From an uncultured Gemmatimonadota bacterium (GTDB taxonomy: Bacteria; Gemmatimonadota; Gemmatimonadetes; Gemmatimonadales; Gemmatimonadaceae), in contig CAMTWA010000020.1 of assembly GCA_947085385.1 (NCBI GenBank), forward strand, positions 29,853-93,852: a DNA stretch of 64,000 bases, written 5' to 3'. The position numbers were made by a program, and so were the translations under genes. This document shows, piece by piece, positions 27,994 through 42,136 of this stretch; position 1 is the stretch's first letter, and every line of letters begins with the position of its first letter. The notes under the pieces are model-generated. The model ran no database searches. It was not told where the DNA came from and saw nothing but the letters and a program-made list of their open reading frames with translations.

Positions 27994-29010
27994 CTATCGT
28001 CTATGATAGTTGACGATCGGCAGGAACTTCACATTTGCATTCCGCGCGATGTTGACGATGCCGATCTGCATGCCATCGAGTTCGCGCGCGTAGTTGACGA
28101 TGCCGATGGCAAGTCCGGTCTGCTGGCCGCGCATTGCGTTCACGCCGGCCACCGAGACGCCGCGCATGCTTCCGCCCTTCCGCAGGCGCACCATCCCCGG
28201 CGCAATCATCAGCCCCTCGATGCGATTGGCGCCGATGAACGGAGCCATCGCGAACCTGCGAATCGTGGGCGCGCCAATGCCGAGCCCGGCGATGGCGATG
28301 CCATCAATGCGGCTGCCGGCGCCAATGCCGATGCCGCCAAGCGCGATGCCGCGCAGCGTACCGCCCACGCCGAGCCCGACGCCCCCGAACCCGACGCCCT
28401 GAAAGTCGCCGCCTGCGCCGGCACCGACACCGCCCACGAGGACGCCGTGCGCATTGCCACCCGCGCCAACGCCAATCAACCCGCCAGCCACGCCGCGCAG
28501 GTTGCCACCCACGCCGGCGCCGACGCCGCCGAGCAGGATGCCGCGGGCATTGCCGCCAACTCCGGCACCGATGCCGCCGAGGGCAACGCCCTCAAGGTCA
28601 CCGCCGGCGCCAACACCGACGCCGCCTGCCGCGATGCCCTTGAGTCGTCCGCCGGCGCCGACGCCGACGGGCGCGATGCCGATACCTGTGAGGCTCTGCG
28701 AAGCACCGGCCCCGAACAGGCCAGTGGCGACGCCCTTCACTGATCCCGCGCCCGTCAGGGGCAGGCCGATGGCGAAGCCATGCACCGTGCCACCCGGGTC
28801 ACCATCGTACGGCGTCCAGATGGTGATGTTCGCGCCGCGCACTTCGCCAAGGGTGCGGTCGCGGAAGTTGATGCGTAGGCCCGAAACGTTCGGATGGTCG
28901 CCAATGGAGAGGACGTGGCGAACGGGTTTTGAACTAGTCGGCTCCTGGCCGAGGGCGGTACTCGCAGCCGCCGCGGTGAACGCGAGGGCAACGACAGCAC
29001 GGAAGCGCAT
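27994..29010 (-). CDS. Secreted glycine-rich repeat protein (16-residue G-x-x-x-G-G-[IV]-G-x-G-x-G-G-x-x-x repeats)
   Basis: Signal peptide MRFRAVVALAFTAAAASTALGQ. About 8 consecutive 16-aa repeats. C-terminal GLAIGIVNYA...GMQIGIVNIA motif resembling surface repeat proteins of Leptospira/Bacteroidota. Confidence 0.65.
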   Translation of the reverse strand: MRFRAVVALAFTAAAASTALGQEPTSSKPVRHVLSIGDHPNVSGLRINFRDRTLGEVRGANITIWTPYDGDPGGTVHGFAIGLPLTGAGSVKGVATGLFGAGASQSLTGIGIAPVGVGAGGRLKGIAAGGVGVGAGGDLEGVALGGIGAGVGGNARGILLGGVGAGVGGNLRGVAGGLIGVGAGGNAHGVLVGGVGAGAGGDFQGVGFGGVGLGVGGTLRGIALGGIGIGAGSRIDGIAIAGLGIGAPTIRRFAMAPFIGANRIEGLMIAPGMVRLRKGGSMRGVSVAGVNAMRGQQTGLAIGIVNYARELDGMQIGIVNIARNANVKFLPIVNYHRR

Positions 29011-29211
29011 AAGACAACTCCTAGCCTGGGGTGGAGATGAGGTCTGGCACGGGCACTACCGCCGGCATGAGCACACAGTTTCGCGCAGCTGCGCGCACAA
29101 CCGCAGTCCCTCCACTTTGACACAGCGTGGAGTCAATAGGTTTGAACTGGACGCGGACGCAGGCGTCGCGCGTGGAGATGCAGGTCGTGCAGCAGTAGCG
29201 GTCGCCTTGGG

Positions 29212-30735
29212 CTACCGCGGCTCCCATCGAATCGAGAACGTCATGACACTCCGCTTGCCTGTCGGCAACAGCGGCAGCGTCGCGTTCCTCGGCGACGTGA
29301 CCGTGCCGTCCACGACCAGGTGGATGAAGTCGCCGTTGCCAAGCTTCCACCCGGCGTCCACCGCTCCGCGGGTCGTCGAGGAGGGCGTGCCTTCCATCGC
29401 GAACGCGTCATAAAGCCAACGCCGAAAGACGGGGCCGAGCGTGCTGGGGGCAGGAAGCACTGACGTGGGCGTCAGCATGCCGAACGCGCCGAGCACGGCG
29501 AGCGAATGGCCAGCGCGTGACTGCCAGTCGGCGCGGGCGCTGCCCAGCCAGCCATTGGCCTTTCGCGACCAGTGCGTACGCCTCAGGTAATCGTCGTGCG
29601 TGGCGTTTTCCATTCGGGTGTCGAGGCCGAACGTCCATCGCGTGCCCGCGATCCACGGCACCGGCGTCTCGGCGCGCAAGCCGAACGTCGCTTCGCTGCG
29701 TGTTGCGCGATGCACGACTGCCGACAGATCGTGACGGCGTGTTTCATCGTCAACACTCTTCGCCGAGAGGCGCGCCGACACGCGACGCATCGTGTCGCGC
29801 AGGGCGAGATGCGCGGTGACGGTGCCGCCCCATCCGGTTGACGACCACCGGTCGAGCGGTGCGTTGGCCAGGCGCTGCGTGTGCTGGTTGTCGTGCTGTT
29901 GCAGTTGCTGCACCACGAGTCCGGCGCCGCGTCGCACGCTTCCTGTGGTGGCAATGAGCGACGCGTTCAACGCGCCATTGGCCGAGCGGCGATAGATGAT
30001 GTTCTGGTCGTACGAAAGGGGGAGCGGATCCTCGAATCCCACGAAGTAGTACGCGATGCCGCCAAAGGGATTGGGCCTCAGGCGCACGGTCTCGTTGGCA
30101 TCGCGCCAGCGCGCCGACGCGGCCACGCGACTGCTGCCGCCGACCTGGCGGCCGGCGCCCGCCACGAACTCCAGCGCCGACGCCTGCTCCGTCCGCATGC
30201 GCGAGCTGTGCTCCGAAACCGCCTCCACGCCCGCATACCGCGCGGTGAGTCCGGCGTCCCACCGGCCGACGGTCCGCGCCATCGTCCCTTCGAGGCGCAG
30301 CGCCGTGCCGGTGAGCTGCGGCGCAAAGGTATCGAGCACGGCGAATGGCGCGGTGGTAAACGAGTTCAGCAGGGCGCCGGTGGACGGCGCGTTCGTGGTG
30401 CGCTCGAGTTCCACGCCACCCAGGAGCGCCGCACGCGTGCCGAGCTTCAGTCCGCCAAATGCACCGGCTCCCTGCATGCTACCCTGTGCCACATCCACCT
30501 TGCGACGCCATGTGCCGCTTTCGGTGCGTGACCAGACGCCGTATCGCAGCGGAGGGAGCAGCTCGAGCCGTGCGAGCGCGGCGGGGTCAACACCGGTCGC
30601 GCTCGGCGCGAGTTCCACGGTCGCGAGCGGCGGCGCCGTCCGAAACCCGGACGTCTGTGGAAGCTGGGCCTGCACGCCGAACGCGATGGCGATGCATGCC
30701 GTCGCACCGATGATTGTGCACGCGGTGTGCCTCAT
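29212..30735 (-). CDS. Putative outer-membrane beta-barrel protein, partner of the upstream TonB-dependent receptor
   Basis: ATGA overlap with the receptor gene. Signal peptide MRHTACTIIGATACIAIAFGVQAQ. Alternating-hydrophobicity sequence ending FSIRWEPR. No family recognised. Confidence 0.55.
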   Translation of the reverse strand: MRHTACTIIGATACIAIAFGVQAQLPQTSGFRTAPPLATVELAPSATGVDPAALARLELLPPLRYGVWSRTESGTWRRKVDVAQGSMQGAGAFGGLKLGTRAALLGGVELERTTNAPSTGALLNSFTTAPFAVLDTFAPQLTGTALRLEGTMARTVGRWDAGLTARYAGVEAVSEHSSRMRTEQASALEFVAGAGRQVGGSSRVAASARWRDANETVRLRPNPFGGIAYYFVGFEDPLPLSYDQNIIYRRSANGALNASLIATTGSVRRGAGLVVQQLQQHDNQHTQRLANAPLDRWSSTGWGGTVTAHLALRDTMRRVSARLSAKSVDDETRRHDLSAVVHRATRSEATFGLRAETPVPWIAGTRWTFGLDTRMENATHDDYLRRTHWSRKANGWLGSARADWQSRAGHSLAVLGAFGMLTPTSVLPAPSTLGPVFRRWLYDAFAMEGTPSSTTRGAVDAGWKLGNGDFIHLVVDGTVTSPRNATLPLLPTGKRSVMTFSIRWEPR

Positions 30736-33506
30736 CGGATGCCCCCGCGCCAGCCGACCGGCAGCACCAGCTCCGCGCCAAACTGCACCGTCGGGAACAG
30801 GCGTGACGCTCGCGTAGCGGTGGCGAACTTCCCTTCGCGGTTGAACGCGTTGAAGGCATACACCGTCAGGCGGCCGTTCGTGGCGATGGTCTTTGCCAAT
30901 TGCAGAGAGGCGATCCAGTCGTTGGCCCGGGTATCCGAGACCGTCGAGACGCCGCGCCGCGGCTGGCGCAGGTCGGCGTACGCGGGGTCGGTGCGACTGG
31001 CGGCAGGGACGGCCGTGTACTGACCGGTGCGCGTGAGGTAGCCGCTCCACGACAATGTGTCGGTGCGCGCCACGTCCTGGGTGCGCTCGCCGACATACCA
31101 TTGAATGACGGCCGACACGAGCAACCCGGCCGCCGGCTGATGATGCGCCAGGCGCGCGCCGAGGATGCCGCGTCGCGCGTCGCGCGCGTAGCCGTCCCAC
31201 ACCGGAATGCGCCGCAGCCGCGCGTCGGTCTGGAACTGGTTGAACGACGAGCGTCCCACGCCGAACTCGAGCCCGCGCTGGCTGAAGCGCGTGTGCGTCC
31301 ATGCCCCCTGCAACTGCACGTCGAGCCGCAAGGCGTCAATGCGCCGCAGGCTCACCGTCGCTTCCACACCGCTGGACTTGGCGTCGAGCACGTGTCCGGG
31401 ACGGTCAATCGTGATGGGCACCGTGTCGATGGCGTACGGCGGTTCAATGAGCACCGGCGGCGAGCCGCTGCCGGGAATCGTGTTGCTCAGTGTGTACCGG
31501 TTGACGAACACGGCATCCGTGTAGCGGTCCTGTCCAACGCCCCCGTGCGTGCGCTCGTCGAACACCACGATCTCCACGGAGCCAATACGCCCCGCTGTCA
31601 GCTCCACACCGGCCTCGCGCTTCTGCATGGTGGTGAAACCAAGGCGGAGATTCGTGGGATCGCGCGTCTCCGTGGTCAGCACGGCGAGGCGCTCCGAAGG
31701 GGTGTTGGCGTACCAATTGACGTTGACGAGGTCGAACCACTGCGTGGCGGGCCAGAGCGATCCCATGGTCGGGGCCTTGGCGGTGCGCCCGGCGGCCGCA
31801 CGCAGGCGGATCCAGCCGGCAGGCACGAGCTGGGCGTTGACGCGTGGCGACAGTAGCCACTGCCGCACGGCCGTCGGCGAGTGCGCATCCGGCACCAGCG
31901 CGTCAGCGCGAGCGCCGAACTCGAATTCACCCTGGCCAAGCGCGCCGAGTTGACGTTGCAGCGACTGCTCGGCGTACAGCGCCGCAATCACCAGCGGTGG
32001 CACGCTGTCGAAGCGCCGCGGCCGGTCGAAGCCGCGAATGCCGTTGAACAGCACCTGCGGCGGGCGGTCCATCGCAAACGTATACCCTGCGCCTCCGTTG
32101 TACTCGGCGCGCAACTCGGCGCCGACGCGGCGGCGGGCCGACGGTTGCAGCCACTCGAGGCGGCCGTAGCCGAGCACGGGTGCGCCTTCGAGAGAGACTT
32201 CGGCCAGATAGGAGCCGCCGATGTAGCGACCCGTTGAACGCCCGGGAGTGAGCCGGTCGGTGAACGGCGTGGCGCCCGACGTCTTGAAGACGCTGGAGGA
32301 GGAGCGCTGGCGCTGCATCGTGGCGCTGTACGTCGCGTGCAGATGTGTCTGGTCGGCGGCGGCGGAGCGCCACCGGCCGAGCAGGCGCACGGTGAGGTTG
32401 CGTGACGACACGGCACGCCCCGGCAGCACGTCGGGCTGTTCGGGGGAGTCCTGCGTGACGAGCGCCGTCTGCAGGCGCAGGTCGCTGCTGCCGCCGCGGC
32501 GCGTGGTGCTGCGCATGGCGACGTCGAAGGCGACGCGTCGCGCCACATCGTCGTTAAGTCCTGGGGAAATGCGCGTGCTCGTGACATCGCCGAAGGCAGC
32601 GCCCACGCGATCGGGATTGAGCTGACGTCCGCCGCGCAGAGTGGCGGCCATCGAGCGCAAGTCGCCGCGGGCGAGCAGTTCGAGTGGCGACGGTGCGGTG
32701 CGCGTATCAACGATGACCGCGCCCTGGGTGAGGTCACCGTAGCGGGCCGGGGGGACGCCGCGAATGACTTCCACGCGTTCGAGCATCGATGCGGGGATGG
32801 CGCGCAGGTCCACGCCGGCGCCGGCATTGGTGGCCAATGACAGCTCACCGCGTCCGCCGAGGGACTGCAGGTTGGCATTGTTGGAGAGCGGTACGCCGTC
32901 GAGGATGATGGACGTGCCCAGCGCGGTGACGTCCTGCGCCCCGGGACCGCTGATGAAGTTGGCGGGTGCGGTGCGCAGGCTTACCTGTTGTGCGCCGGCG
33001 AGTCCCGGCGGCGCGATGGGCACGCCCGGCACGAGTTCGAGCACACCGGCGAGGCTGGCCGCCACCTGGTTCTCGATGGCGGCACGTCCGATGACGGTAG
33101 CGGAGGCGATGGTGCCGTCGGCGCGGGAGCGTGCGTCGGCGGTGACGCGCACGCGGTCGAGGCGCAGGGGGACGGTGGCGAGGGTGACGTCGACGCGCAG
33201 CGTGTCGTCGGCGCGGAGGTCGAGGTCGAGCCGTGCTTCGGCGAATCCGAAGCGGCGCACGCGAACGACGACCGGGCCGGCGGGCACGAGCGCGAGGCGC
33301 CAGACGCCGGTGGCGTCGGAGCGGGCGGTGAGGGGGGAGTTCTCGAGGAGAACGAGCGCGCCGTCGACGGGTCGCAGGTCGCCATGAGTGGTGACACGAC
33401 CGATTAGGGTGCCGGTGGCTTGGGCCTGTACCGCCGTGCTGGCGACGAACAGGCAAAGCGCGACGCCGGTTAGCAGATTGCGCGGGAGGTCTTCTGTCCC
33501 TCTCAT
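30732..33506 (-). CDS. TonB-dependent receptor with N-terminal carboxypeptidase-regulatory-like domain
   Basis: Signal peptide, CarboxypepD_reg-like TGTLIGRVT...GVWRLALVPAGPVVVRVRRFGF, plug motifs (IERVEVIRGVPPARYGDLTQGAVIV) and a long beta-barrel ending in an aromatic-rich tail. Confidence 0.85.
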   Translation of the reverse strand: MRGTEDLPRNLLTGVALCLFVASTAVQAQATGTLIGRVTTHGDLRPVDGALVLLENSPLTARSDATGVWRLALVPAGPVVVRVRRFGFAEARLDLDLRADDTLRVDVTLATVPLRLDRVRVTADARSRADGTIASATVIGRAAIENQVAASLAGVLELVPGVPIAPPGLAGAQQVSLRTAPANFISGPGAQDVTALGTSIILDGVPLSNNANLQSLGGRGELSLATNAGAGVDLRAIPASMLERVEVIRGVPPARYGDLTQGAVIVDTRTAPSPLELLARGDLRSMAATLRGGRQLNPDRVGAAFGDVTSTRISPGLNDDVARRVAFDVAMRSTTRRGGSSDLRLQTALVTQDSPEQPDVLPGRAVSSRNLTVRLLGRWRSAAADQTHLHATYSATMQRQRSSSSVFKTSGATPFTDRLTPGRSTGRYIGGSYLAEVSLEGAPVLGYGRLEWLQPSARRRVGAELRAEYNGGAGYTFAMDRPPQVLFNGIRGFDRPRRFDSVPPLVIAALYAEQSLQRQLGALGQGEFEFGARADALVPDAHSPTAVRQWLLSPRVNAQLVPAGWIRLRAAAGRTAKAPTMGSLWPATQWFDLVNVNWYANTPSERLAVLTTETRDPTNLRLGFTTMQKREAGVELTAGRIGSVEIVVFDERTHGGVGQDRYTDAVFVNRYTLSNTIPGSGSPPVLIEPPYAIDTVPITIDRPGHVLDAKSSGVEATVSLRRIDALRLDVQLQGAWTHTRFSQRGLEFGVGRSSFNQFQTDARLRRIPVWDGYARDARRGILGARLAHHQPAAGLLVSAVIQWYVGERTQDVARTDTLSWSGYLTRTGQYTAVPAASRTDPAYADLRQPRRGVSTVSDTRANDWIASLQLAKTIATNGRLTVYAFNAFNREGKFATATRASRLFPTVQFGAELVLPVGWRGGIR

Positions 33507-33577
33507 CCGAAGCCTCGAATGGAACAAGAACCATTGAATAACGCGCCCGTGAAGGCCGCATCGATTCGTCGCGTTCT

Positions 33578-33609
33578 CTATTGACACTCCGGCCCTGGGA
33601 AGTCAATAG
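33578..33609. promoter_or_regulatory. Palindromic divergent control element CTATTGAC-N16-GTCAATAG
   Basis: Perfect 8-bp arms. Each arm contains TTGAC(A/T), a -35-like hexamer for the gene on its own strand, with the other arm 17 nt downstream. Confidence 0.5.
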
Positions 33610-34268
33610 TGCAGCGCCCCTCGCAGCCTTCCCGACACCGATGGCCTTCCATGTCGTGGCGCTCAATATGGGTGGAGCGGATTCTGCTTGTCGGCCTGGC
33701 GGTACTCGCCTTCGTGCTCACACAGAATGTGCGTGCTGGACGCGCGCGCGAGCTGACGCTCAATCGCAAGCTGCGCGAGCCGTGGCAGGGGAATGCCATT
33801 GCCACCTTCAGCACCCGTTCCGTACAAGGCGATACAGTCACCGTCGCCCAGACGCCAGTAGGGATGAAGCAACTCGTGTACGTTTTCACCACCCGCTGTG
33901 CGTTCTGCCGGCGATCAAACTCGCACGTAGTCGCGCTGCAACAATCGCTCGACAGCGCGGCCGCTGCCGGAGAGGTGCGAGTGCAGATGGTTGGCGTCTC
34001 ACTCGATTCCCTTGCCGAGACCGAGCGCTACGTCAAGGAGCAGGCACTGACGTTTCCGGTTGTTCGGTTCCCGGAGCGCAAGCTGCAGCTGATCTACAAG
34101 ACCCAGGTGGTACCGTCGCTGATGCTGCTGACGGACGAAGGGCGCGTGATCCTAGCGCGGATTGGAGTATTTGAAACCGCGGCCGCTTACGACTCGATGC
34201 TGCGGGCGGCGCTCATTCCGCCGCCGAAGAGGGACTCATTGCCTTCTGCGTTATCAACAAGACCATAG
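33609..34268 (+). CDS. Membrane-anchored thioredoxin-fold thiol:disulfide oxidoreductase (TlpA/ResA-like), copy 1
   Basis: N-terminal TM (ILLVGLAVLAFVL). LVYVFTTRCAFCRRS gives a CxxC after a beta-strand. cis-Pro loop VVPSLMLL. An alternative start at the conserved Met 33651 is plausible if the upstream promoter-like element is real. Confidence 0.75.
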   Translation: MQRPSQPSRHRWPSMSWRSIWVERILLVGLAVLAFVLTQNVRAGRARELTLNRKLREPWQGNAIATFSTRSVQGDTVTVAQTPVGMKQLVYVFTTRCAFCRRSNSHVVALQQSLDSAAAAGEVRVQMVGVSLDSLAETERYVKEQALTFPVVRFPERKLQLIYKTQVVPSLMLLTDEGRVILARIGVFETAAAYDSMLRAALIPPPKRDSLPSALSTRP

Positions 34269-34315
34269 GTCAGCGTCAGTAGGGCGTTGTCATCCTGTAT
34301 ACTGGGAGGTGCCGG

Positions 34316-34561
34316 ATGAGCAGGAAACTCGCAGGGACTGTGCGACTGGCGATTCTCGCGCTGGCTGGCGTCGCTTTGGCGGCTGGTGCGGTTGAGGCGC
34401 GCACAGCGAGTCGGCTGGATGCTTGCTACTATTACCCTCCGTTCTATCTGGGGGCGTGCGCAAACACTCCGCAATGCAAAGACATGTGCTCGGCGTACTG
34501 GCCACCTAATCCGGACATCGGCGAGTGTTTGAATGAGCCGCTGTGCTGCGTTTGCGAATAG
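34316..34561 (+). CDS. Secreted 8-cysteine peptide precursor, defensin-like (CS-alpha-beta / gamma-core signature), copy 1
   Basis: GGGAGG lies 6 nt upstream of the ATG. Sec-type leader MSRKLAGTVRLAILALAGVALAAGAVEA. Core is C-x10-C-x5-C-x3-C-x12-C-x5-CC-x-C. All Cys are conserved in the paralogue at 37585. Confidence 0.7.
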   Translation: MSRKLAGTVRLAILALAGVALAAGAVEARTASRLDACYYYPPFYLGACANTPQCKDMCSAYWPPNPDIGECLNEPLCCVCE

Positions 34562-34562
34562 C

Positions 34563-34603
34563 CGTATTTGAGAACGACCTCAAGACCCATCGCTCGAAAT
34601 ACG
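34563..34603. terminator. Weak hairpin between convergent peptide and lipoprotein genes
   Basis: cgtatttgag ... ctcgaaatacg (7+3 bp with a bulge and a large loop). Confidence 0.25.
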
Positions 34604-34617
34604 CCCGGCACGCTTCG

Positions 34618-35889
34618 CTACGGAGTCACAAACGGCGAGGCCGGCAGGAGCTGAAAGTCACGCGCGCTCGATCGGCTTCGTCTGAGCCAGCTGGTGCTCG
34701 GCTGGCGTGTCCGCTGGAATGATTTGCCGGGGAACGTCCAGGCATTGAGCACGAGCGGAGTCGCATCGATGTTCCCGCCGACAGCAGGTGCGCAGAGCGG
34801 CGGGAACCGCGGGTCGGCCACGTCCCACGAAAACACGTCCAGCAGCGTGGCGCGCGGCAAGAAGATGCGATCGACTCCGTCGGCGGCATTCGGCTTGCGC
34901 CGCGCGGTGGCGACGTCCTGTGCCATCGCCACCACAAACGCGTTTTCTAAGGCCAGCCATTCGGGGCCGTGAGTGTTATACGAACCATACTTCAGTCTCG
35001 TGCCGACCGGGATCAAGTTCGGCACGGAAGGGTTGTCAACGTCACCGGGGCCGATGTACGTCTCAAAGTCCGCATTTCTCAGGTCGAACATGTCGTGCAC
35101 GCCAAATGGCCGGTGATCGATCGCATCGGTGGCCACCACGACCATTTCACCAGGCCTCAGGCGCTTGCCGAGTGGAGGGAACTGGTAGATGATGTCCGCC
35201 CAGACCCCTGTCGAGTCGTCATAGAGCTCGCGAGTAATGGTGCACCTTGTGCCTCCATAGTCTCTAGACGGACCCGTCGTACTCGCGATCAGCATACCGT
35301 CCAACGTGATCGTTGTGTCGCTGTTATTGTACAGTTCGACGTACCCGCCGGCGTTGTATTTCGTCCCGTTTGGCTGGAACGTGACGAAACCACCGTCGAG
35401 CAGTTCTGCAATGACGAGCGATCCACGGCGCACAACGCCCGCACTGAGATCGATCGCGAGCGTGCCGCCCGCGCTGCCCACCAAGAGGCCGCGGGCACCG
35501 CCCCACGCTGAAAAGTCCCGGTCGTCCGCCGTGAGCCTCGCCAGATCCGCAGGCGCGAATGCGCGCGTGACCGTCAGTTGGTAGTTTCCTTCCAACAGGT
35601 CATTGAACGTCGCCACGCCCGTGGCATTCGTGAGCACGCTGATCTCTGTGCCGCCCTCCCGACGCAGCACAACCGTCGCCCCGGGAATCACGTCGGGCCA
35701 GCCGAGCGTTCGAGCGAGCAACAGGTCGGGACTCTCGGGCCGCACAGTCACGCTGAGCGTGGTGCGCAGCACACCACTGCTTGGCGGCGAGGTCGTCCCC
35801 GGGTTCTCAGGAGCGCTCACTCTTGACTCGCCGCCGCCACAAGCGGCGAGCAGTACGCATAGCACCAGTGACCGGCAAGAGGGCGTCAT
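34618..35889 (-). CDS. Lipoprotein with carboxypeptidase-regulatory-like and lamin-tail-domain (LTD)-like regions, paralogue 1
   Basis: Lipobox LLAAC. ATVVLRREGGTEISVLTNATGVATFNDLLEGNYQLTV (CarboxypepD_reg-like). SLVIAELLDG...GGYVELYNNSDTTITLDG (LTD-like). 423 aa after trimming to MTPSCRSL. Confidence 0.7.
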   Translation of the reverse strand: MTPSCRSLVLCVLLAACGGGESRVSAPENPGTTSPPSSGVLRTTLSVTVRPESPDLLLARTLGWPDVIPGATVVLRREGGTEISVLTNATGVATFNDLLEGNYQLTVTRAFAPADLARLTADDRDFSAWGGARGLLVGSAGGTLAIDLSAGVVRRGSLVIAELLDGGFVTFQPNGTKYNAGGYVELYNNSDTTITLDGMLIASTTGPSRDYGGTRCTITRELYDDSTGVWADIIYQFPPLGKRLRPGEMVVVATDAIDHRPFGVHDMFDLRNADFETYIGPGDVDNPSVPNLIPVGTRLKYGSYNTHGPEWLALENAFVVAMAQDVATARRKPNAADGVDRIFLPRATLLDVFSWDVADPRFPPLCAPAVGGNIDATPLVLNAWTFPGKSFQRTRQPSTSWLRRSRSSARDFQLLPASPFVTP

Positions 35890-36032
35890 GACGGAGCGAA
35901 ATGAGGTCAGGCTGGCCGGAGCGTAGCGCCGACACGAACTGCTGTCACCTATGCAATTACCCGCGAGGAAAGTCAAGGGAGAGAGCGAGACGCTACGACA
36001 CCTGCTCAAACGGCACGTTCATCACCGGATAT

Positions 36033-36737
36033 TCACGCCATCCTTAGGTAGTCGAAATGCCACCACTCCGTGGGATTGACGGCGAATCCCTCCGTCTCCA
36101 TCACCAGCCGGAGCAAATCGCGCCTACCGCGCTCGTCGGCGGTACCGCCAGCGTAGTCGGGATACGCACGGTCGGTAAACTCGTCATACCCGCTCGGCAT
36201 GCGTGCGACGCGTCCGGTCGCGCGGTCGTACAGCGTCAGGTCCACGGCCGCGCCGCGATTGTGCCGCGAGCCCGTCGCAGGGTTGGCCACGAAGGTCCGC
36301 TGTGAGTCAGGCGTCGCCTCCCAGAACATCCACGTCACGTGCCACGGGCGGTACGCGTCATGGATCAGCAATCCGTAGCCGTCCCGCTCGAGCGCTTGAT
36401 GGGCGCGCACCAGCGCCTCGGCGGCCGGGCGCTGCAGGAACGCACGCACATGGGAGTACATGGCCGCCCCCATGGAGTTGTTTGTGGAGGCGTAGCGAAC
36501 GTCGAGCCGGATGGATGGGTCGAGTGCCACGAGTTCAACCAGACGCGCTGCACGCGTTCCTGCGAGCCCAGCGGACGGCGTCAGCGCCAACGCCTTGGCG
36601 CGCAACACCTCGACCGGACGGCGAGGGGGAATGCGAAAGGTCGCATGGACGGAGGTGTCCGTCTGCGCGCCGAGAGGAAGCACGGCGAAGACGGCGAGCA
36701 GAGCGAGGCGTGTGCAGTTCATGGAGAAGAGTCGCAT
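36033..36737 (-). CDS. D-alanyl-D-alanine dipeptidase (VanX/DdpX, peptidase M15D) with signal peptide
   Basis: DVRYASTNN, SRHNRGAAVD (SxHxxGxAxD) and PTEWWHFDY motifs. N-terminus MRLFSMNCTRLALLAVFAVLPLGAQ looks like a Sec signal. Confidence 0.8.
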   Translation of the reverse strand: MRLFSMNCTRLALLAVFAVLPLGAQTDTSVHATFRIPPRRPVEVLRAKALALTPSAGLAGTRAARLVELVALDPSIRLDVRYASTNNSMGAAMYSHVRAFLQRPAAEALVRAHQALERDGYGLLIHDAYRPWHVTWMFWEATPDSQRTFVANPATGSRHNRGAAVDLTLYDRATGRVARMPSGYDEFTDRAYPDYAGGTADERGRRDLLRLVMETEGFAVNPTEWWHFDYLRMA

Positions 36738-36842
36738 GACGCCGCAATAAGAGGCCGAGCGTCCAATGCATTCACGACTCCGAAGCGCACTCAAGAGCAT
36801 GCGCACTGTGCGGGATGGACGAACGACTGAACGGCGGCTCTT

Positions 36843-36874
36843 CTATTGACAGTCCGCCCCGGGAGGATTATGTC
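36843..36874 (+). promoter_or_regulatory. Promoter-like element CTATTGACA-N17-TATGTC upstream of TlpA-like copy 2
   Basis: TTGACA at 36846-36851, 17-nt spacer, TATGTC at 36869-36874. Homologous to the element at 33578. Confidence 0.45.
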
Positions 36875-36877
36875 GTG

Positions 36878-37537
36878 ATGCAACGCTCCGCGCGGCTTTC
36901 CCGATACCGGGGGTCGTCTATGTGGTGGCGCTCGATTTGGCTGGAACGCGCGTTACTTGGTGCCCTGACGATCCTGGCGTTCGTGCTCATTCGAGACGTA
37001 CGCGAGAGCCGCGTTCGCGAATTGCAGCTCAATCGGAGGCTGCGCGAGCCATGGCGGGGGAACGCCATGGCCACCTTCAGCGCGCGCTCAATCCAAGGCG
37101 ACACGGTCACGGTTGCGCGGGTGCCGGTGGGGTCGAATCAGCTGGTGTACGTCTTCTCAACCCGTTGCGCATTCTGTCGGCGATCGAATCCCCACATCAT
37201 CGCCCTGCAGCGAGCGCTCGACAGCGCGGCGATGACCGGCGGGGTACGCGTGCAGGTGGTCGGCATCTCGCTCGACTCGCTGCCCGAGAGCGAACAGTAT
37301 GTCGAGGAACAGGGGCTGACCTTTCCGGTCGTGCGGTTTCCGGAGCGCAAGCTGCGGCTGATCTACAAGACGCTGGTGGTGCCCTCGTTGATGCTCCTGA
37401 CAGACGAAGGACGCGTGATCTTGGCCCGGCTTGGGGTGTTCGAGACCAAGGCGGCCTTCGACTCGCTACTGAAGGCGGCGTTGACGCCGCCACCCAACAT
37501 GAAATCGCTCGCCGTCAGCGGCCCAACCGAGCCGTAG
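36878..37537 (+). CDS. Membrane-anchored thioredoxin-fold thiol:disulfide oxidoreductase (TlpA/ResA-like), copy 2
   Basis: Same length as copy 1 (219 codons) and roughly 70 percent identical by hand alignment. Same CAFC motif. Alternative start at Met 36920. Confidence 0.75.
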   Translation: MQRSARLSRYRGSSMWWRSIWLERALLGALTILAFVLIRDVRESRVRELQLNRRLREPWRGNAMATFSARSIQGDTVTVARVPVGSNQLVYVFSTRCAFCRRSNPHIIALQRALDSAAMTGGVRVQVVGISLDSLPESEQYVEEQGLTFPVVRFPERKLRLIYKTLVVPSLMLLTDEGRVILARLGVFETKAAFDSLLKAALTPPPNMKSLAVSGPTEP

Positions 37538-37584
37538 CGCCCGGCGGCGGGCGGACGGTTTTCACTCAACGCGGGAGGTTCCTG

Positions 37585-37830
37585 ATGAAGGAACGAGCTA
37601 CTGCAATAGCACGAATGGCGATACTGGCGCTGGCCGTCGGCGCACTCGTGACCGGGGCTGCCGAAGCGCGGTCGGCCCGGAAGGCGGACGAGTGCCTCTA
37701 TCTGCCGCCGTTCTACCTTGGCGCGTGCACCAGCGACGAGGCCTGCCGGGCCATGTGCGCGCCCTATTATCCCGAGAATCCCGACGTCGGTGCATGTTTG
37801 CCAGCCTGGATCTGCTGCATCTGCGAATAG
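37585..37830 (+). CDS. Secreted 8-cysteine peptide precursor, defensin-like, copy 2
   Basis: GGGAGG lies 6 nt upstream of the ATG. Leader MKERATAIARMAILALAVGALVTGAAEA. Cysteine spacing identical to copy 1. The ORF track shows it only inside a longer out-of-context ORF (36922..37830). Confidence 0.7.
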   Translation: MKERATAIARMAILALAVGALVTGAAEARSARKADECLYLPPFYLGACTSDEACRAMCAPYYPENPDVGACLPAWICCICE

Positions 37831-37857
37831 GACTCCGGATTTCGATCACCGCCCCTG

Positions 37858-39129
37858 ATGCGCCACATAGCCCCGTCCCTCTCCCTCTGTTTGCTGCTGG
37901 CCGCCTGCGGGGGCGGTGAGTCGCGCGTCAGCGGTCCCGCCGCGCCGGGGCCGACCACGCCGTCTCCGGGCGGTGAGATCCTTCGCACCACGCTCGTGGT
38001 GACCGTGCGCCCCGAGGCCCCAGACCTGCTGCTCGTGCGCACGCTGGGCTGGCCCGACGCGATTCCCGGCGCCACGGTGGTGTTGCGTCGGGAGGGGGGC
38101 GCGGAGGTGACGGCGCCGAGTAACGCGCAGGGCGTCGCCACCTTTGCCGATCTGGTGGAGGGGAGCTACCAGCTCACGGTGTCGCGCCCCTTCACGCCGA
38201 CGGAGTTGAGTACGCTCTCGCCGGCCGACCGCGACCAGTCGGCGTGGGGGGGCGCGGGGAGCGTGCGCCTCGGCAACGCCGGCGGCGTCTTGCCCGTGGA
38301 AGTGATGGTCGCGGCAGTCCGGCGTGGCTCCCTCGTCTTCTCCGAGATACTGGGCGGGTTCATCACGTTTCAGCCCGATGGCTCGATGTACGACTACAGT
38401 AGTTACCTGGAACTCTTCAACAACAGCGATACCACGATCACGCTCGATGGCCTCCTCTTGGCCTCTACGTTTGGCGCACGCGACAACTATGGTCCGGAGT
38501 ACTGCGCGATCAATCGGGCCTTGTACGCCGATACCGCGGGCGTTTGGGCCGACATCATCTACCAACTACCGGCCCTCGGACGCCGGCTCAAGCCGGGCGA
38601 GATCGTGGTGGTCGCCACCGACGGGATCGACCATCGCCCCTTCGGCACGCGCGATGTCTATGATCTGCGAGGCGCCGACTATGAGGTCTACCTGGGGCCG
38701 GGTGATGTGGACAATCCTGCCGTCCCCAATCTGATCTCCGTGGGCACGACGCAACAGCATTCCGTACACAGCACGCATGGCACTAACTGGGTTGGACTAC
38801 ACAGCGCCATCGTGATTGCTGCGCCGCAGAATGTAGCGGCGCTAGCGCGACGACCGCTGACGACCCAGGTGCGCGACTACTTGTTGCTCCCCCGGGCGAC
38901 GCTGCTCGATGTCTTCACCCACTTTCGAGACGACCCGCGCTTTCCCCCGCTCTGCGCCCCGACCGTCGGCGCGAACCTCGATGCGAGTCCGCTCATCGTG
39001 CCGCCAGGACCGCTGATCGGCACATCGTTTCAGCGGTCGCGTCACCCGGGTACGTCGTATCTAAAGCGCAGCCGCTCGAGTGCGCGCGATTTCTCCATCC
39101 TCAGTGCGACGCCATTTTCCATTCCGTAG
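37858..39129 (+). CDS. LTD-like lipoprotein, paralogue 2
   Basis: Lipobox LLLAAC, 423 aa, same architecture as 34618..35889. Starts 27 nt after the peptide gene. Confidence 0.75.
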   Translation: MRHIAPSLSLCLLLAACGGGESRVSGPAAPGPTTPSPGGEILRTTLVVTVRPEAPDLLLVRTLGWPDAIPGATVVLRREGGAEVTAPSNAQGVATFADLVEGSYQLTVSRPFTPTELSTLSPADRDQSAWGGAGSVRLGNAGGVLPVEVMVAAVRRGSLVFSEILGGFITFQPDGSMYDYSSYLELFNNSDTTITLDGLLLASTFGARDNYGPEYCAINRALYADTAGVWADIIYQLPALGRRLKPGEIVVVATDGIDHRPFGTRDVYDLRGADYEVYLGPGDVDNPAVPNLISVGTTQQHSVHSTHGTNWVGLHSAIVIAAPQNVAALARRPLTTQVRDYLLLPRATLLDVFTHFRDDPRFPPLCAPTVGANLDASPLIVPPGPLIGTSFQRSRHPGTSYLKRSRSSARDFSILSATPFSIP

Positions 39130-39147
39130 CAAGGAGTGCCTCACGGC

Positions 39148-40422
39148 ATGCGCCATATTGTCCCGGGCCTCGCCCTCTGTTTCCTGCTGGCCGCCTGCGG
39201 GAGCGGTGAGTCGCGCGTCAGCGGCCCGGCCGCGCCGGGGCCGACCACGCCGTCTCCGGGCGGTGAGATCCTTCGCACCACGCTCGTCGTGACCGTGCGC
39301 CCCGAGGCCCCAGACCTGCTGCTCGTGCGCACGCTGGGCTGGCCCGACGCGATTCCCGGCGCCACCGTGGTGCTGCGCCGCGAGGGGGGCGCGGAAACGA
39401 CTGCGCAGAGTAACGCGCAGGGCGTTGCGGCCTTCGCCGATCTGATTGAGGGGAGTTACCAGCTTACGGTCGCGCGCGCCTTCACGACCACGGAACTGGG
39501 TACGCTGGATGTTGCAGACCGCGACCTCTCCGCTTGGGGCGGCATACGCAGCGCGAACATAAGCAACGCCGGCGGCGTCTTGCCCGTGGACGTGACAGTC
39601 ACGGCAGCCCGGCGCGGTTCGATGGTCTTCTCCGAGATCCTGAGCGGTGGCTTCATCACGTTCCAGCCAGATGGCACGATGTACAACTACAGCAGCTACC
39701 TGGAGCTGTTCAACAATAGCGATACCACGATCACACTCGACGGCATGCTGCTGGCAGTCACATACGGCGCAACGCGCAACTATGGTCCGGAGTACTGCGC
39801 GATCAATCGGGCCTTGTACGCCGACACCGCGGGAGTGTGGGCCGGCATCATCTACCAGATACCGGCCCTCGGCCGCCGGCTGAAACCTGGCGAGTTCGCC
39901 GTGGTCGCCACGGACGCCATCGACCATCAGCCCTTCGGCACGCGCGACGTCTATGATCTGCGGGGCGCCGACTACGAGGTCTACCTCGGGCCTGGCGATG
40001 TGGACAACCCTTCCGTGCCCAATCTGATCTCCGTGGGTACGACTCAACAGCATTCGGCGTACTCCACGCATGGCACGTACTGGCTTGAAGGGAACGGCGC
40101 CGTGGTGATTGCCATGCCGCAGAATGTGGCGGCGTTGGCACGACGAGCGCTTACGACGCAGGTTCGCGACTACGTGCTGCTCCCTCGGGAGACGCTACTC
40201 GATGTCATTACCGTCTTTGTAGACGACCCGCGCTTTCCCCCGTTCTGCGCCCCGACGGTCGGCGCGAATATAGACGCCGCCCCGTTTGTCATGAACTCCT
40301 TTGTAATGACCAATTCGTCGTTTCAGAGGCAGCGTCACCCGGGCACTTCGTACTTGAAGCGAAGCCGCTCGAGTGCGCGCGATTTCTCCATCCTTCGCGC
40401 TACACCATTCTCCATCCCGTAG
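39148..40422 (+). CDS. LTD-like lipoprotein, paralogue 3
   Basis: Lipobox FLLAAC. Very similar to paralogue 2, in tandem 18 nt downstream. Confidence 0.75.
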   Translation: MRHIVPGLALCFLLAACGSGESRVSGPAAPGPTTPSPGGEILRTTLVVTVRPEAPDLLLVRTLGWPDAIPGATVVLRREGGAETTAQSNAQGVAAFADLIEGSYQLTVARAFTTTELGTLDVADRDLSAWGGIRSANISNAGGVLPVDVTVTAARRGSMVFSEILSGGFITFQPDGTMYNYSSYLELFNNSDTTITLDGMLLAVTYGATRNYGPEYCAINRALYADTAGVWAGIIYQIPALGRRLKPGEFAVVATDAIDHQPFGTRDVYDLRGADYEVYLGPGDVDNPSVPNLISVGTTQQHSAYSTHGTYWLEGNGAVVIAMPQNVAALARRALTTQVRDYVLLPRETLLDVITVFVDDPRFPPFCAPTVGANIDAAPFVMNSFVMTNSSFQRQRHPGTSYLKRSRSSARDFSILRATPFSIP

Positions 40423-40574
40423 TTGGGCGTGCCTCACTTCATGCGGCAGACATTCCCCTTCCGCGGTGGCACGCTTGGTTCACTCAAGCGCCGCGGTTGC
40501 GAGCCGCACTTGGCGGCGCTCTCCCGTTTCGAAATGACCTTTCAAGAACGGAAAGTCAATAGCAATCGCGCCGA

Positions 40575-41168
40575 CTACCTGGACGGCCAAGCGTAGCGTG
40601 TGAGGTCGTCGCTCGTATCAATGTCGCGCCGCACGCCGGTATCGCTCACCGGCACCTCAACCACCCGCGCACCGTACGCGTGCACCACCGCACGCGCACC
40701 GCCGTCGGCCACCGTCATCAGTTCACGCCACGTCTCGCGCGCGAACCAGACGGGATGTCCCCGCTTGCCCTCGTGCACGGGCACGACAATCGGCGCCCCC
40801 GTGCGTTGCGCGGCATCCACGACGGCCAGCGCGCTCGTCGCCTGCGCGAATGGATGGTCCACCGGCCAGACGAGCACACCGCCGACCGACGTGTTGGCGA
40901 GCTGGGCGAGGCCAAGCCGCAGGCTAATGACCTGTTCAGCCGTGGCGCGCGGGTTCACGACGACGCGCGCGCCGTCGGGAACCATGACGCCGGGCGGCGC
41001 TACCACCAGCACCGGGTCGGCGCCGCTGGTGACGCAGTGCTCCACCACTACGTCGAGGAACCGCCGGCCATCGGGCAACAGCGCGTTCACCTTTGGCTCG
41101 CCGAACCGCACGCCGGCGCCGGCCGCCAGGACAATAGCCGCGAACGGATGCTCCTTCTCGGCGCTCAT
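40575..41168 (-). CDS. Nucleotidyltransferase of the MobA/MocA family (molybdenum cofactor cytidylyl/guanylyl-transferase-like)
   Basis: AAIVLAAGAGVRFG..K N-terminal motif. Start overlaps the stop of the FAD-subunit gene. Confidence 0.7.
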   Translation of the reverse strand: MSAEKEHPFAAIVLAAGAGVRFGEPKVNALLPDGRRFLDVVVEHCVTSGADPVLVVAPPGVMVPDGARVVVNPRATAEQVISLRLGLAQLANTSVGGVLVWPVDHPFAQATSALAVVDAAQRTGAPIVVPVHEGKRGHPVWFARETWRELMTVADGGARAVVHAYGARVVEVPVSDTGVRRDIDTSDDLTRYAWPSR

Positions 41169-42136
41169 CGCGGGTCCAGCCGTCGCATCGCGCGTCGCAA
41201 CAACGCCTGCGCCTGCCACACCTTGTAGCCGTTGTGTTCGAGCGGCTTGGCGTCGTGCATGGCGCGTTCGGCCAGCGCGTCAATGCTGTCGTCGTCGAGC
41301 CCGCCGGTGGCTACGTCCTCCTCCACCGACGGGTTCACGCGATACGGCTCCAACGACACGCCGCCAAGCGCCATGCACACCGCGCCGTCGGTGCGGCGGT
41401 GCGCTGCGAGCGATACCGTGGCGAAGTCCCAGGCGCCGCGCTGCATCAGCTTCTCATAGAACTGCTCGCCGCCCGCCGCCGATTCCGGCAAAAGCACCGC
41501 ACTGATGAACTCGCCGGTGGCGAGGGTCACCTCGCTCTCCGCGCGGCGCGCCGCGCCGTCGAACAGCGCTCGCAGCGTGAGCGTGCGCACGCCTGCAGCT
41601 CCGGTGATTTCCACCATGGCCTCGAGGGCCGTGAGCGCGACAAGGGGATCGCTGGGGTGCACCGCGTGGCATGGCCCGGGCGTGAAGAGCGCGTGGTAGT
41701 GATTCTCGCCCTGCTCGGCGAGGCAATCGGTGGCGCCGTTCTTGAAGCAGGGCAGGCCGCCGCGGAAGTACCAGCAGCGTGGGCGCTGGGCCAGGTTGCC
41801 GCCGATGGTGCCCATCGTGCGGAGCTGCGGTGTTCCCACCGCGGCGGCGGCCTGCGCCAGCGCGGCGTAACGCTCGCCTATGCCGGCGTGCAACGCGAGG
41901 TCGGCCAGCCGTACAGCGCACCCGATGCGCGCCGATCCGTCGTCATGCAGCGCGATGTCGCGCGCGCCGGGAAGGCGGCGCAGGTCCACCAGCGTAGCGG
42001 GGCGCAGGATGCCTTCCTTCATCGCGACCAGCAGGTCGGTGCCGCCGCCAAGCGGCGCGGCCGCCGGCGCCGCCAAGGCCCGTACGGCGTCCGCGGCGCT
42101 GTCGGCCGGATGATAGGCGAAGGGCTGCATAGTCAC
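41165..42136 (-). CDS. Xanthine dehydrogenase family FAD-binding subunit (CoxM/XdhB-like)
   Basis: FAYHPADSAADAVRAL...PLGGGTDLLVAMKEG (FAD_binding_5) plus a C-terminal CO_deh_flav_C-like region. Confidence 0.8.
   Translation of the reverse strand: MTMQPFAYHPADSAADAVRALAAPAAAPLGGGTDLLVAMKEGILRPATLVDLRRLPGARDIALHDDGSARIGCAVRLADLALHAGIGERYAALAQAAAAVGTPQLRTMGTIGGNLAQRPRCWYFRGGLPCFKNGATDCLAEQGENHYHALFTPGPCHAVHPSDPLVALTALEAMVEITGAAGVRTLTLRALFDGAARRAESEVTLATGEFISAVLLPESAAGGEQFYEKLMQRGAWDFATVSLAAHRRTDGAVCMALGGVSLEPYRVNPSVEEDVATGGLDDDSIDALAERAMHDAKPLEHNGYKVWQAQALLRRAMRRLDPR

Follow-up and report, generated by a model that had tools for sequence, protein, structure and literature searches.

A thioredoxin-linked family of acidic eight-cysteine peptides with a predicted defensin fold in a DUF4876 lipoprotein and TonB-dependent transporter cluster of Gemmatimonadota

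Why would a bacterium keep two copies of a gene for a small, cysteine-rich, secreted peptide, each directly behind a gene for a thioredoxin-like protein, beside genes for TonB-dependent uptake? The question is posed by a 64,000-nucleotide stretch of contig CAMTWA010000020.1 from an uncultured Gemmatimonadota bacterium (hereafter the window), in which the peptide genes pep1 and pep2 lie with the thioredoxin-like genes Trx1 and Trx2, the DUF4876-type lipoprotein genes lipA, lipB and lipC, and genes for a TonB-dependent transporter and a DUF6850 protein. An initial annotation had singled out pep2 as the second copy of a peptide whose cysteine framework is frozen while its loops diverge faster than the neighbouring genes, and had likened this pattern to effector, toxin and antimicrobial peptide families. 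We find that both peptide genes are real and that neither is decaying. Their products are very probably secreted peptides with a defensin fold. For accelerated evolution of the loops in the manner of a toxin there is only partial support.

Are these genes at all? The genome is GC-rich and has many long chance open reading frames (ORFs), which would favour regarding pep2 as a spurious ORF, or one copy as a decaying duplicate. The pep2 frame does stay open upstream for a total of 302 codons, overlapping Trx2 in another frame, as the initial annotation had noticed. Translation of pep2 nevertheless returns exactly the peptide first quoted, and both copies are intact, with GGGAGGT as Shine-Dalgarno sequence, five further nucleotides and then ATG. 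The two products have the same length (81 residues) and the same cysteine spacing, C-x10-C-x5-C-x3-C-x12-C-x5-CC-x-C. Frame, signal peptide and all eight cysteines are preserved in homologues that are 26-75% identical, and the ratio of nonsynonymous to synonymous substitution (dN/dS) is about 0.2, the mark of purifying selection on both copies. With this, a chance frame or a decaying copy is effectively refuted. The fear that automated annotation would miss pep2 was unfounded: public gene calls contain P0001, a product of 71 residues that is 100% identical to pep2 from Met11, and related peptides appear there as products of 70-80 residues.

What kind of product do they encode? The pep2 signal peptide comprises residues 1-28, with cleavage predicted between AEA and RS, and leaves a mature part of 53 residues, 5.85 kDa and isoelectric point (pI) 4.6. 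Mature pep1 is of the same length, and both are peptides of about 5.9 kDa with pI of about 4.5-4.6 and a net charge of -3. Other export and processing routes were considered: a lipoprotein signal was rejected from the sequence for want of a lipobox cysteine, a Tat signal for want of a conserved twin-arginine motif, and a ribosomally synthesised and post-translationally modified peptide precursor for want of a maturase gene conserved nearby.

The family is uncurated. A word-indexed search of 5.8 billion proteins returned only five close relatives, and an exhaustive hidden Markov model (HMM) search of 1.84 billion cluster representatives gave 41 clusters at E < 1e-3, nearly all of about 80 residues. 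Scanning GTDB genomes with the peptide alignment found no relative, and genomes were reached via the lipoprotein instead. Members share a signal peptide with an A-x-A-like site followed by C-x3-PP-x2-LG-x-C-x5-C-(Q)-x2-C-x~12-G-x-C-x4-6-CC-x-C. In an alignment of 44 members (26-75% identity), seven of the eight cysteines and one glycine are invariant, while the first cysteine, a second glycine and the Pro-Pro pair are conserved in at least 90%. Because the cysteines and both glycines are invariant or nearly so at such identities, the frozen framework is, judged from this alignment, not due to chance. Charge is just as uniform. Among 42 mature family peptides 41 are negative and one is neutral (mean -3.9); the net positive charge expected of an antimicrobial defensin or bacteriocin is thus found neither in the two copies nor in any of the 42. 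The family is without an NCBIfam model, and all Pfam matches of pep1 and pep2 stay below threshold. The family appears to be undescribed, with its framework, uniformly acidic charge, phylum, Trx partner and DUF4876 embedding as new elements, none of which was found in Pfam, NCBIfam or the searchable literature. The scaffold itself belongs to a known kind, the cis-defensins, to which bacterial peptides also belong. Literature searches on Gemmatimonadota with defensins, on TonB with cis-defensins and on DUF6850 returned nothing relevant.

In other Gemmatimonadota a sister family of small cysteine-rich signal-peptide ORFs, with the framework C-x2-5-C-x5-C-x2-CC-x~9-C-x6-C-x-C, follows Trx genes. 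Its profile aligns to that of the window family with an hhalign probability of 69% (E = 4.6e-5), and its PDB profile matches are chlorotoxin, xanthusin-1 and an insect defensin. Besides the sites given in Table 1, it occurs in loci L033, L034, L050, L056, L072, L078 and others.

Why a defensin fold? The AlphaFold2 model built on the 44-sequence alignment has a predicted local distance difference test (pLDDT) score of 90 and places, after the signal helix, a strand at residues 44-47, a helix at 51-58 and strands at 69-72 and 77-80; a run on the mature part only (pLDDT 86) returns the same elements and a beta-alpha-beta-beta topology. A CxxxC in a helix together with a CxC in the last strand is the defining motif of cysteine-stabilised alpha-beta peptides. 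In pep2, C54-RAM-C58 falls in the predicted helix and C78-I-C80 in the last predicted strand, and these four cysteines are invariant in the 44 sequences. The gamma-core GxC(x3-9)C is present as G69-A-C71-x5-C77, with G69 kept in at least 90% of members. Profile searches point the same way. Pfam AtDEF-like matches 25 of the 44 members at E <= 0.1 (best 2.7e-6), Gamma-thionin matches 11 and scorpion Toxin_2 three. When the mature-region profile was compared with all PDB sequences, 27 of the 28 matches at E <= 10 were plant defensins or scorpion K+ channel toxins, with Ah-AMP1 best (E = 0.007) and NaD1, NsD7 and Rs-AFP1 among them, in register from C1 to CxC. Trimming to the mature part was needed, since the full-length profile gave only spurious alphavirus E1 matches in PDB (E = 3).

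The assignment is well supported but not proven, because the defensin and toxin matches in PDB are marginal (E 0.007-2), Pfam scores fall below the curated cut-offs, and Foldseek gave no meaningful match. In numbers, AtDEF-like scores are 21.7 bits for pep2 and 18.0 for pep1 against a cut-off of 25, and Gamma-thionin (PF00304) reaches 14.4 bits against a gathering cut-off of 25.1; Foldseek searches of the two AlphaFold2 models against PDB returned no match for one and five at E > 5 for the other (kinases and ribosomal proteins). We treat the Foldseek result as insensitivity of the tool to peptides of 50 residues, not as evidence against the fold.

The putative disulfide pairing is C1-C6, C2-C5, C3-C7 and C4-C8. 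Four natural six-cysteine variants (Table 1) have lost C2 and C5 together and kept C1, C3, C4 and CC-x-C, and this joint loss supports a C2-C5 disulfide.

Which enzyme would form these bonds? Trx2 matches Pfam AhpC-TSA (1.9e-8) and Thioredoxin_8, Redoxin is also among the Pfam matches of the Trx proteins, and the closest solved relatives of the Trx proteins are StoA (3erw, E = 3e-5) and other TlpA-like proteins. Hydrophobic residues 8-30 read as an N-terminal membrane anchor, because of which Trx probably faces the periplasm. NCBIfam models score below their cut-offs for both copies: 35 and 30 against 210 bits for StoA, 27 and 25 against 170 for ResA, and 13 and 17 against 230 for TlpA. Active sites were compared in 85 aligned homologues, of which 58 have CxxC and 17 have CxxS. 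The commonest CxxC forms are CPYC (24), CAFC (6), CPFC (5), CGFC (4) and CGYC (3); the CxxC forms, mostly CPYC, CPFC or CGYC, are not of the ResA/TlpA/CcmG type. CPYC is the motif of DsbG and CGYC that of DsbC, and thioredoxin-fold enzymes with a single-cysteine CxxS site keep disulfide-isomerase activity while oxidase and reductase activity are lost. The DsbC/DsbG-like motifs and CxxS variants therefore suggest a role in folding or shuffling the four disulfides of the peptide, and we consider it likely, on active-site motifs and gene position, that Trx is a dedicated folding catalyst of its neighbour.

Single-cysteine CxxS sites (CPFS, CPYS) occur in about one fifth of Trx partners, two examples being listed in Table 1. 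A 182-residue array protein that has no confident Pfam match is a diverged Trx homologue (28% identical, E = 2e-10) with the site CPFS. Two cysteines (C216 and C366 of lipB) are invariant in the mature parts of the DUF4876-type lipoproteins lipA, lipB, lipC and 13 homologues, on account of which the lipoproteins may be Trx substrates too.

Does the arrangement recur? Every contig reached via the peptide has a Trx gene and one or more DUF4876-type lipoprotein genes adjoining it, and the longer contigs L001, L003, L005, L008 and L012 also have a CarboxypepD_reg-Plug transporter gene followed by a DUF6850 gene. The [Trx-pep-lip] unit is present twice in L001 and twice in L005, L008 has the order Trx-pep-lip-pep-lip-transporter-DUF6850, and in L009 and L010 there are arrays of four or more peptides. 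A GTDB scan with the lipoprotein alignment, taking one genome per species, gave 74 loci, almost all from Gemmatimonadota metagenome-assembled genomes (MAGs), the best lipoprotein match being 67% identical in a Gemmatimonadales MAG, which places the window in this phylum. The arrangement of DUF4876 lipoprotein, transporter and DUF6850 genes recurs in most of them. In 29 of the 74 there are 35 family peptides, all within 1.1 kb of a lipoprotein gene (median about 60 bp) and 24 of them directly downstream of a Trx gene. Viewed from the enzyme, 23 of 61 Trx genes have a family peptide downstream, 20 have another small cysteine-rich signal-peptide ORF there, and several of the remainder have a peptide upstream instead. 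Half of the cysteine-rich ORFs ending in CxC in 956 kb fall in the short windows downstream of Trx genes. The Trx-peptide pair is a tightly linked accessory module of the uptake cluster, seen only in the Gemmatimonadota loci sampled.

An IS3-family transposase pair (helix-turn-helix and rve) lies between the two [Trx-pep-lip] modules of L001, which hints that mobile elements help to duplicate or rearrange the cassette.

Do the loops evolve like those of a toxin? Proper alignment of pep1 and pep2 gives 42 identical residues out of 81 overall, 28/53 in the mature part, and 30 of the last 55, as had been counted by hand; at the mature non-cysteine positions 20 of 45 are identical. The pep1 product is a distinct subtype, with the C-terminal GECLNEPLCCVCE. 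The two Trx proteins are 70.8% identical (155/219), close to the earlier estimate, and the peptide has indeed diverged further than the Trx gene (Fisher p = 0.003). Its divergence does not significantly exceed that of the DUF4876 lipoproteins, however, which are 62% identical across modules (p = 0.08) and in which 20-25% of 53-codon windows are at least as diverged as the peptide. Faster divergence than the neighbours thus holds for one neighbour and not for the other.

The codon-level comparison, run gene-wide with the Nei-Gojobori (NG86) and LWL85 estimators, gave Nei-Gojobori dN/dS values of 0.245 for pep1 and pep2 (dN 0.41, dS 1.67), 0.19 for Trx1 and Trx2 (dN 0.19, dS 1.03) and 0.185 for lipA and lipB (dN 0.30, dS 1.63), all from pairs whose synonymous sites are saturated (dS 1.0-1.7). 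The ratio for pep1 and pep2 is equal in signal peptide and mature part. Over the 21 pairs of seven modules (the window and three related metagenome contigs), peptide dN/dS ranges from 0.08 to 0.35 and never comes near 1, and peptide dN is about 1.8 times the Trx value but no more than 1.16 times the lipoprotein value. For the loops between the cysteines, mean dN divided by mean dS is 0.18 within the pep2-like clade, in which the C-terminal GACLPAWICCICE is nearly invariant. With dN/dS low everywhere (0.13-0.25) and dS saturated, diversifying selection is therefore not demonstrated. The scaffold is fixed and the loops are relaxed, with both copies constrained by purifying selection; of the likeness to effector and toxin families, the scaffold stands and the diversifying loops do not. 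Peptide and lipoprotein dN are correlated across the modules (Mantel r = 0.72, p = 0.011).

Trx paralogues have a lower dS than the adjacent peptides in two of three genomes (1.03 against 1.67 in the window, 0.24 against 1.04 in L001) and a lower dS than the lipoproteins in all three (0.65 against 1.48 in L005). We take this pattern as a sign of gene conversion of the Trx gene, or of its separate duplication at a later time, to which part of the low divergence of the Trx genes would be due.

What, then, does the peptide do? DUF4876 proteins are predicted, from AlphaFold-Multimer models of Bacteroides homologues, to be lids of non-SusC TonB-dependent transporters that open by about 20 A (bioRxiv 10.1101/2023.03.17.533168), and were still called uncharacterised in 2026 (PMC13096392). 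The window lipoprotein has no PDB relative by sequence; by analogy with the Bacteroides homologues, the lipoproteins would be exposed at the surface and cap the transporter. We propose that the peptide would be exported by the Sec pathway, that its oxidative folding would be catalysed by the co-encoded Trx protein, and that it would work as a folded, stable, acidic mini-protein with four disulfides, tied to the neighbouring lid lipoprotein and transporter. It could be a carrier or capture protein that docks on the transporter or is taken up through it. We tentatively favour a role as a specific protein partner or ligand of lid or transporter because of the strict linkage to the lipoprotein and the duplication of the [Trx-pep-lip] cassette, and also because of the similar divergence of peptide and lipoprotein, the acidic charge and the divergent promoter region shared with the transporter gene. 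The fuller proposal, that the peptide, folded by its own periplasmic isomerase, is the cognate ligand of the lid, be it as a cargo carrier that the cell makes for itself and for which it has a private receptor, or as a toxin that makes use of the transporter of rivals, is on balance doubtful.

Several observations weigh against the partner or ligand role. Many Gemmatimonadota loci, and five of five Bacteroidota or Ignavibacteria loci, have lid, transporter and DUF6850 genes and neither Trx nor peptide, from which it follows that the transporter does not need the peptide. For a peptide that carries just a Sec signal no outer-membrane route was identified, and it may stay periplasmic; beyond the scaffold of Cys, Pro-Pro and Gly, the 44-member alignment has no conserved residues for a common cargo. 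Among solved proteins, Trx is nearest to StoA and other enzymes of the reductase type. The co-divergence of peptide and lipoprotein is driven by one module, without which r = 0.37 and p = 0.15. A Fur-box-like site was looked for in front of 66 Trx genes and not found (the best match has 8/19 mismatches), and positions 28000-42000 of the window contain no Rfam match or riboswitch; there is thus no regulatory clue to a particular nutrient.

How do other explanations fare? A cationic, membrane-active antimicrobial is unlikely because every mature member examined is neutral or acidic. The classical antimicrobial or effector of the initial annotation, with loops under diversifying selection, would account for a fixed cysteine scaffold with variable loops and for a peptide less conserved than the Trx gene, but dN/dS lies well below 1 in every comparison, the loop-only one included, divergence is no greater than that of the lipoprotein, the net charge of -3 and pI of 4.5 do not suit it, and the gene context is an uptake cluster; we count it among the least probable readings. 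Hardly better placed is an inhibitor of a hydrolase or channel (protease, amylase or ion channel), whose position in the cluster would be unrelated to the transporter substrate. The scaffold is common to channel-blocking scorpion toxins, plant gamma-thionins with this scaffold include enzyme inhibitors, and the sister family resembles chlorotoxin; yet no candidate target gene is conserved in the neighbourhood, and this reading gives no account of why the peptide is linked to Trx and lid lipoprotein genes. Very unlikely, too, is a thiol-based metal-binding peptide of the periplasm, comparable to a metallothionein or metal chaperone, that is kept reduced by a TlpA/StoA-type reductase and receives or buffers a metal imported by the transporter. 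CC, CxC and CxxxC motifs occur in metallothioneins, and the rice defensin-like CAL1 (6lcq), which binds cadmium, is among the PDB profile matches. The closest solved and NCBIfam relatives of Trx are the reductases StoA, ResA and TlpA, and iron limitation in the Bacteroidota P. gingivalis and B. thetaiotaomicron induces DUF4876-transporter operons 100-200-fold, which ranks them with the most strongly responding genes (PMC10434189). A metal-binding role is opposed by the confident compact AlphaFold2 fold with cysteines at the defensin disulfide positions, by the fact that C2 and C5 never go missing one without the other, which fits a disulfide and not a metal site, by CPYC, CGYC and the 17 CxxS sites, which fit isomerases better than two-electron reductases, and by the lack of any conserved His, Asp or Glu ligand and of any Fur-box-like site.

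The main rival, itself unlikely, is a receptor-dependent bacteriocin that would enter rival Gemmatimonadota via their TonB-dependent transporter and its DUF4876 lid; the lipoprotein encoded alongside would be a resistant receptor variant or an immunity protein, and Trx the toxin-folding enzyme. Bacteroidales BSAP toxins, for comparison, are encoded beside resistant alleles of their surface receptors. The cassette structure, with arrays of several diverged peptide/lipoprotein pairs, is explained equally well this way. The two proteins diverge at similar, comparatively high rates, and an acidic peptide would need a receptor to cross the outer membrane. Defensins and toxins have this scaffold, and antibacterial activity is on record for bacterial defensins (PMC11561630, PMC6989792, PMC12284004). 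Set against this, 42 of 42 peptides are neutral or acidic; the conserved cluster of Trx, lipoproteins, transporter and DUF6850 lacks the exporter, lysis and immunity genes usual for Gram-negative bacteriocins, although a lipoprotein may act in immunity; a producer would have the toxin in its own periplasm; dN/dS values of 0.13-0.25 give no sign of an arms race; and members of the pep2 clade hardly vary in the C-terminal half.

How is the locus laid out, and how might it be transcribed? After start codons were refined against orthologues, each peptide gene lies 47 nucleotides behind its Trx gene and is probably co-transcribed with it, and pep2 and lipB probably share an operon because they are only 27 nucleotides apart. 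All three lipoproteins have the lipobox L-A-A-C. The palindromic element between the transporter gene and Trx1 (Table 1) has a half-copy upstream of Trx2, and a promoter scan found TTGACA-18-AATAGT on the + strand (10/12) and TTGACT-18-AATAGA on the - strand. ATTGAC-N10-26-GTCAAT occurs seven times in 1.14 Mb of fetched loci, always upstream of a Trx gene; equivalent palindromes (CTATTGACA-N14-16-GAAGTCAATAG) have conserved arms and diverged spacers. The element may be a face-to-face bidirectional promoter or an operator. A terminator scan gave nothing above chance.

Two further genes of the window stand apart from the conserved set. An M15 D-Ala-D-Ala dipeptidase gene sits between the two modules and has no full-length counterpart at that position in related contigs; L003 has only a truncated gene after its lipoprotein gene. 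Just beyond the DUF6850 gene is an ORF of 338 residues whose N-terminus is signal-like and which is largely made up of glycine-rich G-x-G-x-G-G repeats (...GVGAGG...).

Table 1. Features of the window and sites in related loci; locations are window positions unless an L number names the locus.
Feature	Location	Strand	Description
pep2	37585-37830	+	81 codons; signal peptide and 53-residue acidic eight-Cys mature part; translation, family HMM E = 2.6e-17
pep1	34316-34561	+	81 codons; paralogue of pep2 (52% identical), same Cys framework
Trx2	36920-37537	+	205 residues; thioredoxin fold, CAFC; stop 47 nucleotides upstream of pep2
Trx1	33651-34268	+	Paralogue of Trx2 (71%), active site CAFC; directly upstream of pep1
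lipA	34618-35889	-	DUF4876 lipoprotein, 30.0 bits (cut-off 27.9); 62% identical to lipB; convergent with pep1
lipB	37858-39129	+	423 residues; lipobox LLAAC; CarboxypepD_reg-like, LTD-like and DUF4876 regions (27.3 bits, just under 27.9)
lipC	39148-40422	+	Tandem paralogue of lipB (83% identical); DUF4876 31.4 bits (cut-off 27.9)
TonB-dependent transporter	30732-33506	-	924 residues; CarboxypepD_reg, Plug and barrel (Pfam); divergent from Trx1-pep1
DUF6850 protein	29212-30735	-	507 residues; Pfam DUF6850 38.8 bits (cut-off 27); start overlaps transporter stop by 4 nucleotides
M15 dipeptidase	36033-36737	-	VanX/DdpX-like, predicted signal peptide; Pfam Peptidase_M15 E = 2.5e-32
Glycine-rich ORF	27994-29010	-	338 residues
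302-residue ORF	36922-37830	+	pep2 frame open upstream
Palindromic element	33580-33612	.	Promoter/operator-like; CTATTGACA-N15-GAAGTCAATAG; between transporter gene and Trx1
Palindrome half-copy	36842-36863		Upstream of Trx2
Equivalent palindromes	L001 4588, 8299; L003 9266; L005 4435, 7323; L015 11804
Trx paralogues compared for dS	L001 4664-5281, 8424-9020; L005 4506-5123, 7393-8010		Compared as were Trx1/Trx2 of the window
CxxS Trx partners	L009 3585-4130, 7651-8196		Single-Cys active site
IS3-family transposase pair	L001 7138-8255		Between two [Trx-pep-lip] modules
Six-Cys variant	L024 6406-6927	-	C2/C5 replaced by K and W
Six-Cys variant	L027 9424-9771	+
Six-Cys variant	L032 11298-11444	-
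Six-Cys variant	L053 11315-11542	-
Sister-family ORFs	L016 8368-8688, 12086-12370; L022 7427-7672; L025 9534-9767, 12218-12442

Why does the locus matter? Were the ligand role true, the peptide would be the first partner identified for the uncharacterised DUF4876 transporters, and the cis-defensin scaffold would gain a non-cationic, receptor-mediated role in a phylum without reported defensins. If the peptide binds the lid, it would also open a way into the study of these transporters, whose family is strongly induced in Bacteroidota of the gut and mouth when iron or haem is limiting. The Trx-peptide pair may serve as a compact model for the dedicated oxidative folding of multi-disulfide peptides, with a use in the production of disulfide-rich peptides.

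How does the system compare with those already known? The Trx proteins resemble TlpA, ResA and StoA in combining a thioredoxin fold and CxxC with the N-terminal hydrophobic anchor of ResA and StoA, but lie far below the cut-offs of those families and lack W-C-x-x-C, and about one fifth of the homologues have CxxS; in the CPYC and CGYC active sites of their relatives they approach DsbG and DsbC. They differ from known thiol-disulfide oxidoreductases in that each would serve a single small substrate encoded next to it. The uptake cluster recalls the Bacteroidota systems BT1938-39, BT3631-33 and PG1019-22, in which one or two DUF4876 lipoproteins accompany a non-SusC transporter with a CarboxypepD_reg N-terminus; in the window a DUF6850 gene stands beside this core. 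The Trx gene and peptide are absent from the five fetched Bacteroidota or Ignavibacteria loci. The Bacteroidota operons are induced when iron or haem is limiting; the Gemmatimonadota locus gave no regulatory signal. As a functional analogy only, the haemophore HasA with its receptor HasR and the ferredoxin uptake system FusA are similar in that a small stable protein is recognised by a surface transporter, with receptor and protein ligand encoded together; there is no homology to them, and no secretion system, cargo site or processing enzyme was identified at the pep locus.

Among peptides, bacterial cis-defensins are the nearest bacterial comparison. The 74 published ones, still few and only lately discovered, almost all from Proteobacteria and of debated relation to eukaryotic defensins, form classes I-V (xanthusin-1, corallosin, cellulosin and others; PMC11561630). 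With these and with the actifensins and actinomycesin, the window family shares a signal peptide, the CxxxC...CxC cysteine-stabilised alpha-beta motif and the GxC gamma-core. None of the class patterns consulted in PMC11561630 matches its framework; class III there reads C-x2-C-x5-C-x3-C-x7-C-x4-C-x2-C-x-C, and class V has the same plant-like beta1 strand but a C1-C8 bond. The sources of classes I-V are Proteobacteria (mostly myxobacteria), one Acidobacteria and one Actinobacteria, as against Gemmatimonadota for the window family, and PMC11561630 makes no mention of thioredoxin or Gemmatimonadota.

The closest likeness in detail is to plant defensins (PF00304 and AtDEF-like PF25052; Ah-AMP1 1bk8, NaD1 1mr4, Rs-AFP1 1ayj), the top PDB profile matches. 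They too have a signal peptide and an eight-cysteine domain of about 50 residues, with identical C1-x10-C2-x5-C3-x3-C4 spacing, an aromatic-x-G-x-C before the helix, a G-x-C gamma-core, a C-x-C in the last strand and the beta-alpha-beta-beta topology predicted here for the pep products. Plant defensins, however, have a C-terminal eighth cysteine three residues after CxC, whereas pep2 lacks it and ends one residue after CxC (...CCICE), with an extra cysteine directly before CxC (CC-x-C) that would give a C1-C6 bond instead of C1-C8. They are basic and from plants; the window peptides are acidic (pI 4.5), bacterial and encoded in a cluster with Trx and a transporter. The family thus adds an eight-cysteine framework with plant-like spacing, and its sister family a chlorotoxin-like one, both across Gemmatimonadota MAGs, in a context unlike that of any described defensin: a dedicated thioredoxin-fold partner, a TonB-dependent uptake cluster and acidic members.

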